From an uncultured Clostridia bacterium (GTDB taxonomy: Bacteria; Bacillota; Clostridia; TANB77; CAG-508), in NCBI GenBank assembly GCA_944388675.1, contig CALXJR010000013.1:1-20546 (forward strand): a DNA stretch of 20,546 nt, given 5' to 3'. Positions 1-5,783 of this stretch are shown here, in pieces; the stretch's first letter is position 1; the number at the start of each line of letters is the position of its first letter. A program made the translations under genes and the position numbers. The notes beneath the pieces were generated by a model that saw only the letters and a list, made by a program, of their open reading frames with translations, ran no database searches and had not been told where the DNA came from.

Positions 1-1223
1 GAAGGTGAATTTACAATTATTCTTCCAGCTTTTACTCTTTCAGAGAATTTTTGAATTGTATCTCTATCTTCTGAATGAATTACAGCTGAATGTCCAAGTC
101 CACCAAATTCAATTAATTTTTCTGCTAAATCAATTCCTTCATCAGAATTTTTTACAACATAATAAGCTAATACAGGACTTAATTTTTCCTTAGAGAATGG
201 ATATTCAATTCCTACTCCATTTTCTTTTAATACTAATACTTTTGTTTCCTTTGGTACTTCTATATCTGCACTTTTTGCAATATTATATGGACTTTGTCCA
301 ACAATTGCAGAATTTAGACTTCCACCTTTTTCTTTTATAAACATACTTTCACGTAATTTATTTGTCTCTTCTTCATTTAAGAAATAGCATCCAGCTTCTT
401 TCATTAGTTTTTCAAATTCTTTATGTATTTCTTTATCCACTATTACAGATTGTTCAGATGCACAAATCATTCCATTATCAAATGATTTTGAAAGCACTAG
501 GTCATTTACAGATGTTTTTAATTTAGCTGTTTTATCTATATAACATGGAACATTTCCTGGTCCAACACCTAAAGCTGGTTTTCCACAAGAATAAGCACTT
601 TGTACCATTCCCTTTCCACCAGTTGCTAATATTAAATTTACATCTGGATGATTCATAAGCATTGTAGTAGCAGTTATTGATGGTTCTTCAATCCATAATA
701 TACAATCTTTTGGAGCACCTGCTTGTACTGCAGCATCTCTTAAGATTGTAGCAGCTGCAACACTACATTTTTGTGCACTTGGATGGAATCCAAATATTAT
801 TACATTTCTTGTTTTAGCAGATATTATAGATTTAAACATAGTTGTAGATGTTGGGTTTGTAACAGGTGTAACTCCTGCAATTATTCCAACAGGCTCTGCA
901 ATTTCTTCATAGCCTTCTTCCTCATTTTCATTAATAACACCAACTGTTTTATCATATTTTATACTATGATAAATGTATTCTGTAGCAAACATATTTTTTG
1001 TAATTTTATCTTCATAAATACCACGCTTTGTTTCTTCTACTGCCATTTTAGCAAGTTCCATATGATGTTCTAGTCCTGCCATAGCCATAGCTTTAACAAT
1101 TTTGTCTACTTGGTCTTGTGAAAGTTTCATATATTCCTCTGATGCTTTTTTTGCTCTTGCAACTAAACCATCTATCATATCTTTAATATGATTCTTTTGT
1201 TCCTCTGTAAGTTCTGTTGCCAT
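1..1223 (-). CDS. adhE: Bifunctional acetaldehyde-CoA/alcohol dehydrogenase AdhE, N-terminal (aldehyde dehydrogenase) part; the 3' end lies beyond the window start
   Basis: Not in the ORF track, presumably because there is no stop in the window. The reverse strand from ATG at 1223-1221 stays open to position 1. It reads MATELTEEQKNHIKDMIDGLVARAKKASEEYMKLSQDQVDKIVKAMAMAGLEHHMELAKMAVEETKRGIYEDKITKNMFATEYIYHS...IAEPVGIIAGVTPVTNPTSTTMFKSIISAKTRNVIIFGFHP...ILATGGKGMVQSAYSCGKPALGVGPGNVP...FDNGMICASEQSVIV. This is collinear with the E. coli AdhE N-terminus as I remember it. AAGGAGG lies 7 nt upstream of the ATG. Confidence 0.9.
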   Translation of the reverse strand, partial: MATELTEEQKNHIKDMIDGLVARAKKASEEYMKLSQDQVDKIVKAMAMAGLEHHMELAKMAVEETKRGIYEDKITKNMFATEYIYHSIKYDKTVGVINENEEEGYEEIAEPVGIIAGVTPVTNPTSTTMFKSIISAKTRNVIIFGFHPSAQKCSVAAATILRDAAVQAGAPKDCILWIEEPSITATTMLMNHPDVNLILATGGKGMVQSAYSCGKPALGVGPGNVPCYIDKTAKLKTSVNDLVLSKSFDNGMICASEQSVIVDKEIHKEFEKLMKEAGCYFLNEEETNKLRESMFIKEKGGSLNSAIVGQSPYNIAKSADIEVPKETKVLVLKENGVGIEYPFSKEKLSPVLAYYVVKNSDEGIDLAEKLIEFGGLGHSAVIHSEDRDTIQKFSERVKAGRIIVNSP

Positions 1224-1277: not shown

Positions 1278-1305
1278 ATTATATATTACCTAGTTTTTTT
1301 GTCAA
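1278..1305 (-). promoter_or_regulatory. Sigma-70-type promoter for adhE
   Basis: On the minus strand, TTGACA (1305-1300), a 16-nt spacer, then TATAAT (1283-1278). This gives a leader of about 50 nt before the adhE ATG. Confidence 0.55.
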
Positions 1306-1426: not shown

Positions 1427-1454
1427 TTGACAAATGTAAAATATATGATATAAT
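1427..1454 (+). promoter_or_regulatory. Near-consensus promoter with extended -10, driving a short plus-strand transcript
   Basis: TTGACA (1427-1432), a 16-nt spacer ending in TGa, then TATAAT (1449-1454), so TGnTATAAT is present. No protein gene lies downstream before a terminator about 90 nt away. Confidence 0.6.
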
Positions 1455-1460
1455 AAAAAT

Positions 1461-1548
1461 AGAAATAAGGAGCCACAAAAGTGGTCGCCGTTTTATATGT
1501 ATTTTAAATACACACTCTAACAGCGCAGCAGAGTGTGTATTTTTTTAT
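1461..1548 (+). ncRNA. Candidate small RNA of about 85-90 nt, antisense to the 3' end of the small hydrophobic ORF (putative type I antitoxin RNA)
   Basis: It is bounded by the promoter at 1427-1454 and the hairpin plus T-run at 1508-1553. It contains a 5' hairpin, CCAC-aaaa-GTGG (1473-1484). It is fully complementary, because it is on the opposite strand, to the terminator stem and last codons of the minus-strand ORF 1545-1658. Ends are predicted, not measured. Confidence 0.45.
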
Positions 1549-1553
1549 TTTTT
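1508..1553. terminator. Bidirectional rho-independent terminator shared by the plus-strand sRNA and the minus-strand small ORF
   Basis: A 10-bp perfect stem, ATACACACTC (1508-1517) with GAGTGTGTAT (1531-1540), encloses a 13-nt loop. On the plus strand it is followed by TTTTTTATTTTTT. On the minus strand the tail is weaker (ATTTAAAAT). Confidence 0.7.
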
Positions 1554-1658
1554 GCTTAATATATGTATAATTACAACTATTAAGGCAATAGTTATGATAG
1601 TTACTGATACTAGACCAGCAAAAAGAAATATAATAAATTGAAATAAAAATTCTATCAT
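1545..1658 (-). CDS. 37-aa hydrophobic single-TM peptide with a C-terminal KK (candidate type I toxin)
   Basis: My own translation gives MIEFLFQFIIFLFAGLVSVTIITIALIVVIIHILSKK, then TAA at 1547-1545. GGAGG (1671-1667) lies 8 nt upstream of the ATG at 1658. An in-frame ATG two codons further up (1664) sits only 2 nt from the SD. The track ORF 1504..1689 is a different frame over the same DNA. Confidence 0.6.
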   Translation of the reverse strand: MIEFLFQFIIFLFAGLVSVTIITIALIVVIIHILSKK

Positions 1659-1662
1659 ACTC

Positions 1663-1685
1663 ATCACCTCCTTTGTGGAGGCGAC
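1663..1685 (-). promoter_or_regulatory. 5' UTR hairpin that sequesters the Shine-Dalgarno sequence of the small ORF
   Basis: The minus-strand RNA reads GUCGCCUCC-acaaa-GGAGGUGAU. That is a 9-bp stem (5 G-C/C-G core pairs plus U-A, C-G and two G-U pairs) with a 5-nt loop. The 3' arm is the SD itself. Confidence 0.5.
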
Positions 1686-1716
1686 ACACTTCTGCTTTTC
1701 CTTACTTCTGAGTAAA

Positions 1717-1745
1717 ATTATACAAATTATTTAATTATAAGTCAA
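1717..1745 (-). promoter_or_regulatory. Near-consensus promoter for the small hydrophobic ORF
   Basis: On the minus strand, TTGACT (1745-1740), a 17-nt spacer, then TATAAT (1722-1717). The predicted 5' UTR is about 45-50 nt. Confidence 0.6.
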
Positions 1746-1785: not shown

Positions 1786-1813
1786 TTGATTTTGAAAAGT
1801 AATATAGTATAAT
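1786..1813 (+). promoter_or_regulatory. Promoter for a second short plus-strand transcript
   Basis: TTGATT (1786-1791), a 16-nt spacer, then TATAAT (1808-1813). It is divergent from the small-ORF promoter. Confidence 0.55.
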
Positions 1814-1819
1814 AATGTT

Positions 1820-1930
1820 ACAGAAATTAACGAAACAAAATTCATAGCTATAAATTTCTGTAACGAGTTTTATTATTGTCTAAGTAAAGGACCCAAGAAA
1901 AGACTAGAGGTGCATGCTCTAGTCTTTTTC
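1820..1930 (+). ncRNA. Candidate small RNA or leader of about 110 nt, function unknown
   Basis: It runs from the promoter at 1786-1813 to a strong intrinsic terminator at 1897-1930. It has a 12-bp perfect inverted repeat, GTTACAGAAATT (1817-1828) with AATTTCTGTAAC (1853-1864), around a 24-nt loop. No credible ORF lies inside. Confidence 0.4.
1897..1930 (+). terminator. Rho-independent terminator
   Basis: Stem GACTAGAG (1902-1909) with CTCTAGTC (1917-1924), extendable by A-T pairs. The loop is 7 nt (GTGCATG) and is followed by TTTTT (1925-1929). Confidence 0.7.
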
Positions 1931-2048
1931 TGTACTAGTCAAACATCTTAAGAAGAAGATAATTAAGGACGAAATGGAAAAAAAATTGAAATATATTTAA
2001 ATTTTGCAAATGCATCGGACACAAAATATTATAATGGTGCAGTTTTAC

Positions 2049-2077
2049 TTGACTTTTTACCTTTATTTTTATATAAT
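2049..2077 (+). promoter_or_regulatory. Promoter for leuS
   Basis: TTGACT (2049-2054), a 17-nt spacer, then TATAAT (2072-2077). This leaves only about 30 nt of leader before the leuS ATG. Confidence 0.65.
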
Positions 2078-2113: not shown

Positions 2114-4504
2114 ATGTCATATAACTTTAGAGAAATTGAACCTAAATGGCAAAAATATTGGGACGAACATAAAACATTCTATACTGATGTATGGGATTTT
2201 TCAAAGCCTAAATATTATGCTCTAGACATGTTTCCTTACCCATCAGGACAAGGCTTACATGTTGGACATCCAGAAGGTTATACAGCAACAGATATTATGT
2301 CTAGAATGAGAAGAATGCAAGGCTATAATGTATTACATCCAATGGGATGGGATGCTTTTGGTCTTCCAGCTGAACAATATGCTATTAAAACTGGAAACCA
2401 TCCAGAAGGATTTACAAAAGCAAATATTGCTACTTTTAAAAGACAATTAAAAATGCTTGGTTTTTCTTTTGATTGGGATAAAGAAATATCAACATGTGAT
2501 CCATCTTTTTATAAATGGACTCAATGGATTTTTAAACAACTTTATAATGATGGTTTAGCAAAATTAATAGATATGCCAGTAAATTGGTGTGAAGAATTAG
2601 GAACAGTTCTTTCAAATGATGAAGTAATTAACGGAAAAAGTGAAAGAGGTGGCTTCCCTGTTGTAAGAAAGAATATGAAACAATGGGTTATGGATATTCC
2701 AAAATATGCTGAAATATTGCTAGAAGGATTAAATCATATTGATTGGCCAGAATCTACTAAAGAAATTGAAAGAAACTGGATTGGAAAATCTGTTGGTGCA
2801 GAAGTTACATTTAAAGTTGCAGATTCAGATTATGAATTTACTGTATTTACAACAAGACCAGATACATTATTTGGTGCAACTTATTGTGTACTTTCACCAG
2901 AGCACCCATTAGTTGATAAAATTACAACTAAAGAACATTCTAATGAAGTTAAAAAATATAAAGAAGAATCTGCTACTAAATCAGACTTAGAAAGAACAGA
3001 TTTAAATAAAAATAAAACAGGAGCATTTACAGGTAGTTATGCAATAAATCCTGTAAATGGTAAAAAGATTCCTATTTGGATTTCAGACTATGTTTTAATG
3101 ACATATGGAACAGGAGCAATTATGGCTGTTCCTGCTCATGACCAAAGAGATTATGATTTTGCAACTAAATTTGGACTAGATATTATTCCTGTTCTTGAAG
3201 GTGGAGACGTTTCTAAAGAAGCCTTCACAGGTGATGGAATTCATATTAATTCTGATTTTTTAAATGGTCTTGATAAACAAGAAGCAATAGACAAAATGAT
3301 TGAATGGCTTGAAGAAAAAGGTATAGGCGACAAAAAAGTAAATTATAAATTACGTGAATGGATTTTTGCAAGACAACGTTATTGGGGTGAGCCAATTCCT
3401 ATTGTATATACTGAAGATAATGAAATTCATGTATTAGCAGATGAAGATTTACCTTTAGTATTACCAGAGCTTGAGGATTACAAACCATCTAAAGATGGAG
3501 CTTCTCCTCTAGATAAAGCAAAAGATTGGGTAAATACTACATTTGAGGGTAAAAAAGCAAGAAGAGAAACTAGTACAATGCCTGGTTCTGCAGGATCTAG
3601 CTGGTATTTCTTAAGATATATAGACCCACATAATGATAAAGAATTTGCAAATCAAGAACTTCTAAAACACTGGATGCCAGTTGACCTATATGTTGGTGGA
3701 CCTGAACATGCAGTAGGCCACTTACTATATGCAAGATTCTGGAATAACTTCTTATATAATAAAGGATTATCACCTGTTAAAGAACCATTTGCTAAACTTT
3801 GTCATCAAGGTATGATTCTTGGTACAAATGGTGAAAAAATGAGTAAATCTAAAGGAAATGTTATAAATCCAGATGACATGGTAAAAGAATTTGGAGCAGA
3901 TGCTCTAAGAGTATATGAAATGTTTATGGGACCATTAAGTGCTGATAAACCTTGGGACCCAAATGGAATATCAGGTTCTAAGAACTTTCTAGATAGAGTT
4001 TGGAGATTATTCGCAGAATCTGATAAAGTAAAAGATGAAGAAAATAAAAACTTAGAAAGAGAATATCATTACACAGTAAAAAAAGTTACTAATGATTATG
4101 AAGCGATGAGCTTTAATACAGCAATAGCTCAAATGATGATATTTATTAATCAAGCTTATAAAGAAGATGTATTACCTAAAAAATATGCAGAAGGATTTTT
4201 ACAATTACTAAACCCAATTGCTCCACACATTACAGAAGAACTATGGAACAAATTAGGTCATACAGAAACAATTGCATATGAACCTTGGCCTACTTATGAT
4301 GAAGAAAAAACAAAGAGCAATACAATAAACCTTCCAATACAAATAAATGGAAAGTTACGTGCTACAATCGATATTCCAGTAGATGAAGATGAAGGAAAAA
4401 TTAAAGAATTAGCACATGAAGCAGTAAAAGAAAAATTAGAAGGTAAAACAATTGTAAAAGAAATATATGTAAAAAATAGAATTTACAATATTGTTTTAAA
4501 GTAA
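2114..4504 (+). CDS. leuS: Leucyl-tRNA synthetase
   Basis: A 796-aa ORF with class I signatures: HVGHPEGY (the HIGH motif) near the N-terminus and KMSKSKGN (the KMSKS motif). The overall sequence is typical of bacterial LeuRS ([16 protein letters not shown]...). A purine-rich AAAAGGGG lies upstream of the ATG. Confidence 0.98.
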
Positions 4505-4574: not shown

Positions 4575-4685
4575 TGTGCGATTTTAAAATTATCTAATGT
4601 AACATATTTGTAATATTTTTTTAACCTTTCTGTTATACTTTTTTAGCGAATTTTGTTGTATAATAATTTTAAACTAAGGAGAATT

Positions 4686-5783
4686 ATGCAAAAAATGAGT
4701 ATAGAGTCAGATTTAAAAAAAGATGGAATAACTGTTATTTCCGAATTAGATAAATCAAGTATTAATACTATAGCTAAAAATGTAAGCCAAAATATTATTT
4801 CTACATTTCCTAATATTGGCTTTTCTTTTGATGAACTTTACAATAGATTTTCCAATTTACCTATGTATATTGCACACATTCCAGAAGGTCTATCTGAAGC
4901 AAGTTATTTCTACAAAAATTCTGCAATTTATTTTAGAGATGGAATGGGACTTTCCGATTTGGAAAAATATGCTGTTCATGAATTAATTCATAATTTGCAA
5001 GAAGTCAAAGATGAAAAAGGAAATCTTAAAAGATTAGGCTTATGCATTTTTCATGGTTCTAAAGCATCTGGTATGGGCTTAAATGAAGCAGCGGTGCAAT
5101 GGATTACATCAAATATATGGGGAGAAACTTTTGAAAATGTAACATATTACAATATACAATTTTCTACAATAAGCCCTAATTGTTACCCTCTTTTATGCAA
5201 TATAATATATCAAATGACATATGTAACAGGAGAAGAAGTTTTAATAGACAGCACAATTAATAGTAATGATCATTTTAAAAACAAATTTTCAGCTTTATGT
5301 GGAGAATTAGCATATAGAACAGTTTCTGATTCTTTTGACAATATTTTAAATTGCGAAGAAAAAATTATTAAATTAAGCAATAAATTAGCAAATTCTGATG
5401 TGTCAACAGAGAAATATCATAAATTATCAGAAAAGATTGAAAATTTAAAAAAACAAATAAGACAGCAATATTTCCTTGCACAGGAAACCATTATAAAAAC
5501 TTATTTTGCAACAGTTTATAAATCTTTATTAAGTTCTGATGATATAGAAAGATTTAGAAAAAAACTATATAGTTTTAAAGATTTAATAGGAACTACTGAT
5601 GGTTATCATTTCTTTAACGACTATTACATATATATGATGGAAAATCTTGATAAGAAATTTGATAGTTTACCAGAAATTGAAAACAGTACTTATCTAATTG
5701 AAAGAAAAGAAAATACATTTTTAAAGATTATTAATTTTATAAAGAAAATTTTATTAAAAAGAGAATTTGAAAATGATAAATAA
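4686..5783 (+). CDS. Hypothetical protein with an HExxH zinc-metallopeptidase-like motif and a coiled-coil-like C-terminal half
   Basis: The track ORF starts at a TTG at 4653. I prefer the ATG at 4686 because AAGGAGA (4676-4682) precedes it. The motif is YAVHELIHNLQ, with GLNEAAVQ about 40 aa downstream as a possible third ligand. The C-terminal roughly 150 aa are K/E/L-rich. The pattern HELxHxxQ preceded by AIYFRDG resembles the DUF4157-type peptidase-like domain, but only from memory. Confidence 0.75.
   Translation: MQKMSIESDLKKDGITVISELDKSSINTIAKNVSQNIISTFPNIGFSFDELYNRFSNLPMYIAHIPEGLSEASYFYKNSAIYFRDGMGLSDLEKYAVHELIHNLQEVKDEKGNLKRLGLCIFHGSKASGMGLNEAAVQWITSNIWGETFENVTYYNIQFSTISPNCYPLLCNIIYQMTYVTGEEVLIDSTINSNDHFKNKFSALCGELAYRTVSDSFDNILNCEEKIIKLSNKLANSDVSTEKYHKLSEKIENLKKQIRQQYFLAQETIIKTYFATVYKSLLSSDDIERFRKKLYSFKDLIGTTDGYHFFNDYYIYMMENLDKKFDSLPEIENSTYLIERKENTFLKIINFIKKILLKREFENDK

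Follow-up and report, generated by a model that had tools for sequence, protein, structure and literature searches.

A candidate type I toxin-antitoxin cassette of gut Clostridia with an RNA layout resembling that of bsrG/SR4

Among type I toxin-antitoxin systems, for which T1TAdb holds 24 families and Rfam 13 antitoxin families (PMC8594479), bsrG/SR4 belongs to prophage SPbeta of Bacillus subtilis and to the TxpA/BsrG family (Pfam PF16935 Hol_Tox, Rfam RF01412). In the bsrG mRNA, nucleotides 1-35 pair with nucleotides 232-262 to form helix P1, and the adjacent Shine-Dalgarno sequence (SD), which is 12 bp long, lies in a helix of 4 bp (PMC3834814). The antitoxin SR4 overlaps the 3′ end of bsrG; its terminator loop first meets the bsrG loop located at the stop codon, and then the 3′ strand of P1 (PMC3834814; PMC6562991). 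Upon SR4 binding the SD helix of bsrG grows from 4 to 8 bp, translation falls, and the duplex is degraded by RNase III (PMC3834814; PMC6562991). In the par system, convergent promoters, a shared hairpin with complementary loops and a 5′ stem-loop over the SD are found (PMC7472228). Here we describe a cassette of 319 bp located in the spacer between an adhE-like gene and leuS of an uncultured Clostridia bacterium (assembly GCA_944388675.1, contig CALXJR010000013.1, positions 1 to 20,546; this whole stretch of 20,546 nucleotides is called the window below). From comparison of its sequence with that of its relatives, we conclude that the cassette is probably a type I toxin-antitoxin module with an undescribed toxin family, organised like bsrG/SR4. 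Of what is expected of type I systems in general, two features were found, namely a small peptide of predicted membrane type and a putative antisense RNA gene with its own promoter and terminator.

An initial annotation, made from the letters of the window alone, had pointed out five elements at this locus: an open reading frame (ORF) of 37 codons for a hydrophobic helix, a near-consensus promoter in front of it, an SD paired in a hairpin of the 5′ untranslated region (5′ UTR), a convergent transcription unit of about 88 nt without ORF, and a terminator hairpin shared by the two transcripts. These observations were confirmed, with a correction for the terminator that is given further down (coordinates are collected in Table 1). 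Both promoters rank among the best promoter matches of the region, in which 18 promoter-like sites were observed against 8.9 +/- 3.3 expected, a figure that is weak evidence by itself. The decisive point is that the full arrangement is kept in at least 17 distinct cassette sequences elsewhere, so that it exceeds chance: the five elements are not a fortuitous assembly.

Relatives were gathered from the contigs of four relatives of the peptide, 8 genome loci, 20 metagenome loci and further look-ups, which gave more than 40 loci, in genomes and metagenomes of gut Clostridia, carrying a unit of about 315 bp. The named genome records with the cassette are gut Clostridia, including Clostridium sp. 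CAG:508 and metagenome-assembled genomes of human and mouse gut. Alignment of 15 loci, and then of more, established the cassette as a unit at the sequence level, with conservation confined to the stretch from the toxin -35 box to the small-RNA -35 box and the flanks unrelated beyond TTGACT... on one side and ...TTGTCAA on the other. At least seven sequence lineages could be told apart by their leader, hairpin and tail sequences: A (the window, L001-L021, L042 and L043), B (L023-L034), C (L022), D (L035), E (L038), F (L041) and G (L044). All seven keep two convergent promoters of the sigma-A type, an SD of the AAAGGAGGUGAU type in an anti-SD hairpin, the ORF with a hairpin located at its stop codon or shortly 3′ of it, and a small-RNA 5′ domain that contains a small CCAC-loop-GUGG hairpin. 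The initial annotation had proposed to look for co-occurrence of the ORF, the SD hairpin and the antisense promoter in related genomes, and the three were found together in all relatives.

The ORF, called the toxin gene below for simplicity, is intact and in frame at every locus. Among nine distinct lineage-A sequences, variable sites were distributed 10/2/19 over the three codon positions (pN/pS 0.29). Since the frame is kept at all loci and changes are mostly at third positions, the ORF is, on the evidence of these alignments, a real coding gene under purifying selection; conservation limited to the DNA, the pattern named beforehand as that of a non-coding element, is not what was observed. 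AlphaFold2 predicted one helix spanning residues 2-36 of the peptide (pLDDT, the predicted local distance difference test, 95.8). A first peptide search returned four unnamed relatives of 36-49 amino acids (aa). A profile search over 1.84 billion cluster representatives then returned 35 clusters (at 50% identity) with E<1e-3, whose only label was "hypothetical protein", and whose consensus reads M[IV][ED]..LL.LI.LLF.[GA]LV.V[TS]II..ALII.LV.I[LI]SK. None of the aligned members contains a proline in the helix, nor a PXXXG motif. Membership of a known protein family was considered and discarded, as searches of the peptide family in Pfam, NCBIfam and PHROGs gave nothing meaningful, in agreement with the earlier impression that the peptide falls outside the named toxin families.

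Predicted folds also contain a small hairpin inside the ORF. In L006, L010, L011 and L014, paired synonymous changes (GGT/GTA to GGC/GTG) preserve its closing pair. In the window and at these four loci the pattern is U[G/A]CUGGU-loop-AUCAGUA, and the toxin codons TCA GTA ACT ATC are invariant at the DNA level in all lineages, which points to a constraint beyond coding.

In front of the toxin gene, the SD AAAGGAGGUGAU forms a 12-nt match to the 3′ end of 16S rRNA. Its pairing in a 9-bp hairpin of the 5′ UTR, as first proposed, was recovered in the minimum free energy (MFE) fold of the 212-nt toxin RNA, a fold with a z-score of -6.0, and sequence comparison establishes its conservation, the hairpin being found in 14 of the 14 aligned leaders. 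A trace of it is even left in N-terminally overlong gene calls, where it is translated as "CVAS...KEEV" or "WFAS...KEV". The GUCGCC sequence of this hairpin is also part of the long-range helix described below.

The convergent unit is predicted to produce a small RNA, composed of a 5′ hairpin, a variable linker and a terminator hairpin, with a fold z-score of -4.0. Its promoter has a TTGAC[AT] -35 box together with a TATAAT or TAAAAT -10 box in nearly all lineages examined; the aligned -35 box is TTAACT in L006, L010, L011 and L014. No ORF of at least 25 aa is present on the plus strand of the small-RNA region. That it might be a coding RNA was considered and rejected: the window has only an 8-codon GTG ORF there, which is not conserved. 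Cofolding of the small RNA with the 3′ end of the toxin mRNA gave a perfect duplex of about 45 bp, with a binding energy (ddG) of -40 to -45 kcal/mol.

Both RNAs share the central hairpin, which lies directly 3′ of the toxin stop codon and was established by sequence comparison across the relatives. The initial annotation had described it as a 10-bp terminator acting in both directions. The shared hairpin is indeed present, but its stem has 13 bp, and for most lineages the notion that the toxin mRNA, too, ends there is probably incorrect. In the window, the stem is followed by a run of 7 U on the small-RNA (plus) strand, and only by AUUUAAAAU on the toxin strand; a run of at least 4 U is found 3′ of the hairpin on the small-RNA strand in 15 of 17 lineages, and on the toxin strand in 4 of 17. 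As read from these tracts, the hairpin appears to be a reliable terminator for the small RNA only, and two-way termination in the window is doubtful. The sequence of its loop differs freely between lineages while the stem is preserved, as expected if the loops make the first, specificity-determining contact, and the stem-loop on the toxin mRNA is a likely kissing site for the small RNA.

A further similarity had escaped the initial annotation: the toxin mRNA begins with about 30 nt (the leader) that resemble the 5′ domain of the small RNA. In the window, AGAAGUAAGGAAAAGCAGAAGUGUGUCGCC in the leader corresponds to AGAAAUAAGGAGCCACAAAAGUG-GUCGCC in the small RNA, and in lineage B ACAGGAAAUGAGAAUAAGCAGAUGUGGUUUGCC corresponds to ACAGGAAAUGGAGAAACCACAAAAGUGGUUUGCC. 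Within one cassette the two sequences agree closely, and across lineages poorly, which indicates that the two ends co-evolve. In consequence of this layout, the leader is complementary to the tail, the stretch that follows the central hairpin on the toxin strand. The energy of the leader-tail duplex was -37 to -38 kcal/mol in the window, compared to -16 +/- 3 for shuffled sequences. Across lineages the duplex extends end to end, with -24 to -43 kcal/mol compared to -12 to -16 for dinucleotide shuffles, and none of 300 shuffles attained the observed energy in eight of the nine lineages tested (0.3% did in L022).

Covariation was analysed with RNAalifold on constructs joining leader and tail, which replaced a full-length MAFFT alignment in which lineages A and B were misaligned at both ends. 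Over 17 cassettes, 23 pairs were obtained, 10 of them with compensatory changes. In this register 93.3% of the cells pair, compared to 43-55% when the partners are slid by 1-3 columns, and 0 to 1 of 500 shuffles attained the observed values. At the sequence level this establishes a conserved leader-tail helix, similar to P1. Two of its pairs are G.U in 16 and 13 of the 17 sequences, where the opposite strand would have A.C mismatches; likewise, transitions between leader and small RNA are wobble-compatible in 36 cases and incompatible in 9. These conserved G.U pairs and the wobble bias place the helix, and the selection acting on it, on the toxin strand; by implication, the toxin transcript extends past the central hairpin.

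The leader has a second potential partner. Its segment GCAGAAGUGUGU in lineage A and its segment CAGAUGUG in lineages B, C and E are complementary to the central hairpin, over the 5′ arm and the first bases of the loop. The match shifts together with the hairpin across lineages, with energies of -15 to -21 kcal/mol that 0-8% of shuffles attain. As the leader segments involved overlap, the leader-arm and leader-tail pairings are mutually exclusive.

Pairing of the small-RNA 5′ domain with the ribosome-binding region of the toxin mRNA, of the type known for SprA1AS or par, was tried with RNAduplex and rejected: 15-69% of shuffles did as well or better, and the predicted site is not conserved. 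An additional transcript, antisense to the leader, was also considered in view of an internal plus-strand promoter (ATTACA-17-TATGAT, 9 of 12 positions); it was discarded, as the relatives inspected do not keep this promoter.

Table 1. Features of the cassette and of its surroundings in the window
Feature	Position	Strand	Details
Whole cassette	1427..1745	.	319 bp; outer limits are the two convergent -35 boxes
Toxin promoter	1745..1717	-	TTGACT-17-TATAAT; 11/12 consensus positions; retained in lineage A, weaker TTGTTT-16-TATAGT in lineage B
Toxin mRNA leader	1680..1709	-	AGAAGUAAGGAAAAGCAGAAGUGUGUCGCC; 5′ strand of the P1-like long-range helix; imperfect same-sense copy of the small-RNA 5′ domain
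Anti-SD/SD hairpin	1685..1663	-	GUCGCCUCC-ACAAA-GGAGGUGAU; 9 pairs including two G.U
Toxin ORF	1658..1545	-	37 aa + stop; MIEFLFQFIIFLFAGLVSVTIITIALIVVIIHILSKK; single hydrophobic helix
Intra-ORF hairpin	1602..1620	-	UGCUGGU-CUAGU-AUCAGUA; seen in predicted folds
Central hairpin	arms 1506-1518 and 1530-1542	.	both strands; 13 perfect pairs; flanked by A-rich and U-rich tracts
Tail	1461..1489	-	GGCGACCACUUUUGUGGCUCCUUAUUUCU; 3′ strand of the P1-like helix; exact complement of the small-RNA 5′ domain
Small-RNA promoter	1427..1454	+	TTGACA-16-TGaTATAAT; 12/12 consensus positions; extended -10 TG
Predicted antitoxin small RNA	1461..~1548	+	about 88 nt; 5′ hairpin, variable linker, terminator hairpin
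Small-RNA 5′ hairpin	1472-1485	+	GCCAC-AAAA-GUGGU; fold prediction
AdhE-type aldehyde dehydrogenase gene	3-1223	-	
Promoter-like site upstream of leuS	1786-1813	+	TTGATT-16-TATAAT
Hairpin of 9 bp	after the 1786-1813 promoter, within 1786-1932	+	ACAGAAAUU...AAUUUCUGU
Strong terminator-like hairpin and U-tract	about 1900-1930	+	AAGACUAGAG...CUCUAGUCUUUUU
Second promoter, directly before leuS	2049-2077		TTGACT-17-TATAAT

The pairing potential of these RNAs suggests how such a module could work, although the specific switch at the P1-like helix has at best an even chance of being right. The near-consensus promoter would produce an mRNA for a single-helix membrane peptide, with its 12-nt SD locked in the 9-bp anti-SD hairpin, and the stronger convergent promoter would produce the small RNA of about 88 nt, with a terminator hairpin that exactly complements the one following the toxin stop codon. 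The toxin transcript, running from about 1709 to about 1461, would usually not stop at the central hairpin but extend over the small-RNA gene. Its first 30 nt would then pair with the 3′ tail and close the molecule, a structure in which GUCGCC is taken away from the 9-bp anti-SD helix, leaving about 5 bp that ribosomes could open. By analogy with bsrG/SR4, we infer an order of contacts in which the small RNA would first meet the complementary hairpin loop and then zip along the perfectly matching tail. The displaced leader would restore the 9-bp anti-SD helix and translation would be blocked, while the long RNA duplex would be cleaved by RNase III and decay. Should synthesis of the small RNA stop, for instance upon loss of the DNA, the tail would re-pair with the leader and the peptide would be made, inserting into the membrane and stopping growth. 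Pairing of both mRNA ends in the P1-like helix, as predicted, would also be a structural hint at a stable toxin mRNA.

Thermodynamic modelling supports the switch of the SD in direction only. In most lineages, the predicted probability that the SD is unpaired was 0.00 in terminated or 3′-blocked mRNA, and 0.03-0.36 in free read-through mRNA; exceptions were L005 and L009, which remained at 0.00, and L001, at about 0.4 in all three forms of the mRNA.

A more elaborate version, which we consider doubtful, is that the leader acts as a built-in and deliberately imperfect copy of the antitoxin, serving as a two-position switch with antitermination. During transcription, the GCAGA..GUGUG segment of the leader would pair with the 5′ arm of the central hairpin and prevent termination at this small-RNA terminator, letting the mRNA run on over the small-RNA gene. 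The leader would then move to the newly made tail by means of the conserved G.U wobbles, giving a panhandle without a terminator of its own, in which the anti-SD helix is loosened. The antitoxin would take the tail away only by virtue of being the perfect version of the leader sequence.

A number of observations weigh against the reading of the cassette as a bsrG/SR4-like toxin-antitoxin module. All members come from uncultured genomes or metagenomes, and no copy of the cassette was found on the reference plasmids and phages searched. The C-terminus of the peptide has one or two lysines only, and is less charged than in most type I toxins. The covariation of leader and tail formally gives the signal that concerted evolution of an inverted DNA repeat would also give, RNA pairing being favoured by the G.U bias only. 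The predicted gain in SD accessibility is modest, and 7 pairs of the SD helix persist in the window's own MFE fold. Finally, the four lineages having at least 4 U on the toxin strand as well may stop part of their mRNA there, without tail, and no terminator for a read-through toxin mRNA is found within the conserved cassette.

The last points bear on the alternative that survives best, which is close to the initial annotation and which we regard as unlikely. Here the cassette is still a type I module, but both RNAs end at the central hairpin, the overlap is of about 45 nt, and the small RNA only promotes decay of the mRNA 3′ end; the likeness of leader and small RNA would come from an inverted duplication or from a 5′ element that both RNAs have in common (a purine-rich stabiliser, for example, or a shared start-site context). 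The strength of the central hairpin, with its 13 bp and its A-rich and U-rich flanks, fits this view, as do the U-tracts of the four lineages and the lack of a conserved terminator for the longer mRNA. A terminated mRNA would moreover fold stably with its SD fully sequestered, and the 3′-end duplex alone reaches -40 kcal/mol. What speaks for a toxin-strand helix instead is that the two conserved G.U pairs and the 36:9 wobble bias are not accounted for by mere sequence identity, that the toxin-strand U-tract is missing in 13 of 17 lineages, and that identical runs between the two arms do not exceed 12 nt. Such runs are too short for gene conversion to maintain the two arms. In bsrG, a geometry equal to that of the cassette has been probed experimentally (PMC3834814).

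The genomic settings of the cassette bear on the other alternatives. In the window it is chromosomal and present in one copy. Elsewhere its neighbours are unrelated from locus to locus; among them are resolvase with DnaB_C and DUF3846, IS110 transposase, ParE and an rve integrase, and also SMC with an amidohydrolase, RNase HII with pyrimidine-nucleoside phosphorylase, era with recO, cmk with spoIVA, and rplM-rpsI with yunB. This occurrence in unrelated contexts, sometimes beside mobile-element genes, supports the interpretation made initially of a type I candidate of a new family resembling bsrG/SR4, which the present comparison as a whole likewise supports, as far as sequence allows; the computational checks suggested along with it all turned out in its favour. 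An origin from plasmids or phages was considered and not retained: tblastn and blastn searches of PLSDB and INPHARED returned only AT-rich promoter-like fragments, with the proviso that the low-complexity filter of tblastn may mask the peptide. A scan of IMG/VR gave no relative of the cassette.

Two loci differ in their left half. In L002 (1640-1784) and L016 (about 1200-1327), the SD, the ORF, the hairpin and the small-RNA gene are kept, and the promoter and leader differ; the L016 leader is of a third type, GAUAAAGGAAUAAGCAGAGCGGUUAGCCUCU. With leaders replaced at both loci, the left half of the cassette is evidently swappable. The L002 site lies downstream of an IS110 transposase gene. A simple insertion of IS110 into the leader was examined for L002 and rejected, the missing left part not being present on the far side of the insertion sequence (IS), and we consider this locus a leader-replaced variant. 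At two other loci, partial tRNA genes lie directly past the small-RNA side (L004, 1551-1610, minus strand; L034, 1415-1455, minus strand), a hint that the cassette may insert beside tRNA genes.

Public gene calls over the cassette are often wrong (P0002, P0005, P0006, P0009, P0012, P0013, P0022 and others). N-terminally extended calls translate the 5′ UTR, giving "CVASKEEVMCM" or "MWFASYKKEVRRM", and others run past the stop codon through the hairpin, giving "NTHSACRLECV". Genuine BsrG-family loci are affected as well. In Bacillus phage BUCT082 (L040, 411-524, UAW07872.1), a coding sequence is annotated over such a locus in the wrong frame (MKGGDANV...), and the Hol_Tox peptide MSTFQALILMLAFGSFIIALLTYINKK, in another frame, is unannotated; in phage SPbetaL1 (L039), the BsrG-family locus is devoid of any annotation.

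An alternative of lower probability still is that the ORF encodes a harmless small membrane protein, for instance a subunit with a regulatory or accessory role, whose expression happens to be adjusted by a cis-antisense RNA outside of any toxin-antitoxin function. The many copies located between chromosomal housekeeping genes would suit such a protein, as would the weakly charged C-terminus. Against this, the unit has two promoters of its own and moves between unrelated neighbours without a constant partner gene, and some copies adjoin resolvase, integrase, ParE or IS genes. Furthermore, a near-consensus promoter and a 12-nt SD placed under two layers of RNA structure, together with a stronger antisense promoter, are the signature of a product that must stay off.

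The two remaining alternatives are both very improbable. One is a mobile element without coding function, for example a miniature inverted-repeat element whose terminal repeats happen to resemble promoters, the ORF being a by-product. It is suggested by the many genomic sites and by the cassette ends, which are imperfect inverted repeats of about 60 nt, each made of a promoter and some 30 nt. Yet the ORF is intact in all copies with changes concentrated at third codon positions, and the peptide consensus persists down to 46-60% identity while the DNA of leader and hairpin is replaced. It is also the transcribed part of the repeats, and not their termini, that is best conserved; each locus has a single copy, with none elsewhere in the window, and no obvious target-site duplications were seen in the flanks inspected, no systematic search having been made. 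The other is a divergent member of the par (Fst-RNA II) family, whose convergent promoters, shared hairpin with complementary loops and SD-covering 5′ stem-loop all recur in the cassette, but this reading is already contradicted by the repeats, which are inverted and not direct, giving 5′ ends of the same sense, by pairing to the ribosome-binding region at the level of shuffles, and by a peptide devoid of PXXXG and of any match to Pfam or NCBIfam models. The sole direct repeat of the region, the 9-nt TATATGTAT, is located elsewhere than in the 5′ regions, which are inverted repeats.

The surroundings of the cassette in the window, which has about 27% G+C, are housekeeping genes (leuS at 2114-4504 on the plus strand, addB, udg, ogg and others). 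The toxin gene is oriented towards the adhE-like gene, upstream of which, about 120 bp past the cassette, a perfect promoter is present (TTGACA-16-TATAAT, 12 of 12 positions, 1278-1305, minus strand). Given this co-orientation, a toxin transcript leaving the cassette would meet the 1278-1305 promoter and adhE. On the other side, the 1786-1932 region, with a promoter-like site, a 9-bp hairpin and a terminator-like hairpin (Table 1), matched neither a T-box nor any other Rfam family, even at E<=10, and could be an unrecognised leader or small RNA. Downstream of leuS, an ORF of 376 aa (4653-5783, plus strand) had no Pfam match at E<=1e-5.

If the proposed two-position switch is true, a target would mimic its own antitoxin, and long-range antitermination would be achieved within a mobile unit of 315 bp. 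The family, which is named in none of the sources searched, appears to be widespread in uncultured gut Clostridia. The occurrence of bsrG/SR4 RNA logic with an unrelated peptide suggests that this design, in which a 5′-3′ helix is coupled to an SD hairpin and the antitoxin takes hold of the 3′ strand, is a general solution rather than one peculiar to Bacillus. The many lineages provide a natural series of compensatory mutations for a mechanism of the bsrG/SR4 type, and the 315-bp cassette would be a compact test object for long-range RNA switching and antitermination. It could also become a portable regulatory or counter-selection device for Clostridia. At a practical level, gene callers now give wrong ORFs, N-terminally extended or read-through, at cassette loci.

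Comparison with known systems was carried out for RNA and peptide. In Rfam, nothing in the window attains a gathering score; weak matches to LhrC, ctRNA and Bacteroid-trp cover only the hairpin and U-tract, and these known RNA families were rejected. With hok/sok (fold-back inhibition) and aapA1/isoA1, the cassette has in common a pairing of the toxin mRNA 5′ and 3′ ends coupled to SD access. In those systems, however, the antisense RNA covers the initiation region or the 5′ region, and the mRNA is activated by trimming of its 3′ end, whereas in the cassette it would be the 3′ strand of the long-range helix itself that the antisense RNA binds; their hosts are Gram-negative and their toxins unrelated. 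In sprA1/SprA1AS of Staphylococcus aureus, the antisense RNA also overlaps the 3′ end, and the 5′ domain outside the overlap is functional in SprA1AS. That domain covers the ribosome-binding site in trans, whereas such a pairing is at chance level here.

Closer in host range are the Clostridioides difficile modules (CD0956.2/RCd10, CD2517.1/RCd8, CD0977.1/RCd11 and others), which share with the cassette clostridial hosts, convergent overlapping antisense RNAs, and toxins of 34-53 aa, hydrophobic in their N-terminal and basic in their C-terminal part, often carried on mobile elements (PMC6563280, PMC7699646). They differ by lysine-rich toxin tails and by promoters that include sigma-B types, the peptides being set apart on the basis of their descriptions. 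No DNA or protein similarity was found in the phage collection, which should include C. difficile phages, within the limits of a tblastn low-complexity filter that may mask the peptide.

The cassette resembles par (fst/RNA II of Enterococcus faecalis pAD1, family Fst/Ldr) in its convergent promoters, in a module size of about 300-400 bp, in a shared hairpin with loops able to kiss, and in an mRNA whose 5′ end is sequestered and whose SD is covered by a 5′ stem-loop; the U-tract on the toxin side is weak in most lineages of the cassette. Its repeats are inverted, those of par (DRa, DRb) direct, so that the 5′ ends are not complementary in the cassette, and the peptide lacks the PXXXG motif (as defined in PMC7472228), an acidic tail and a match to the family model.

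There are also differences from bsrG/SR4. The window scores 18.4 bits and L004 15.4 bits on RF01412, compared to a gathering threshold of 55, and the partial match covers model positions 35-131 only, that is, the SD hairpin and the start of the ORF; BsrG loci used as control score 214-221 bits. Likewise, peptide homology is undetectable: none of the 29 members tested matches PF16935 at E<=10, and the hhalign probability is 1%, whereas a BsrG-like control peptide matches at 5.5e-15. The small RNA is of about 88 nt, compared to about 180 nt, and its start coincides exactly with the end of the P1-like helix; the cassette lacks a counterpart of SL4, the stem-loop that serves bsrG as a separate toxin terminator; and the leader has the additional complementarity to the 5′ arm of the central hairpin.

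The likeness to bsrG/SR4 concerns the RNA design, and goes deeper than had been noted at first, since it includes the covarying 5′-3′ helix and the 12-nt SD. The toxin has 37 aa here and 38 in bsrG; the 12-nt SD lies in a hairpin, with identical GGUGAUG-NNN-AUG spacing; and the first 30-35 nt of the mRNA form with a 3′ segment a long helix abutting the SD hairpin. In genuine BsrG loci from SPbeta-like phages, taken as control, the leader-tail duplex has an energy of -36.5 kcal/mol compared to -19 for shuffles, a value of the size seen in the cassette. The antitoxin, transcribed convergently, overlaps the toxin mRNA at its 3′ end, its terminator loop complements the stem-loop at the stop codon, and the next segment to pair is the 3′ strand of the P1-like helix. 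The RNA geometry of bsrG/SR4 thus appears to be present in the cassette, on condition that the toxin mRNA reads through the central hairpin. While homology to bsrG is not detectable, bsrG/SR4 is, judging from these sequences, the closest known design.

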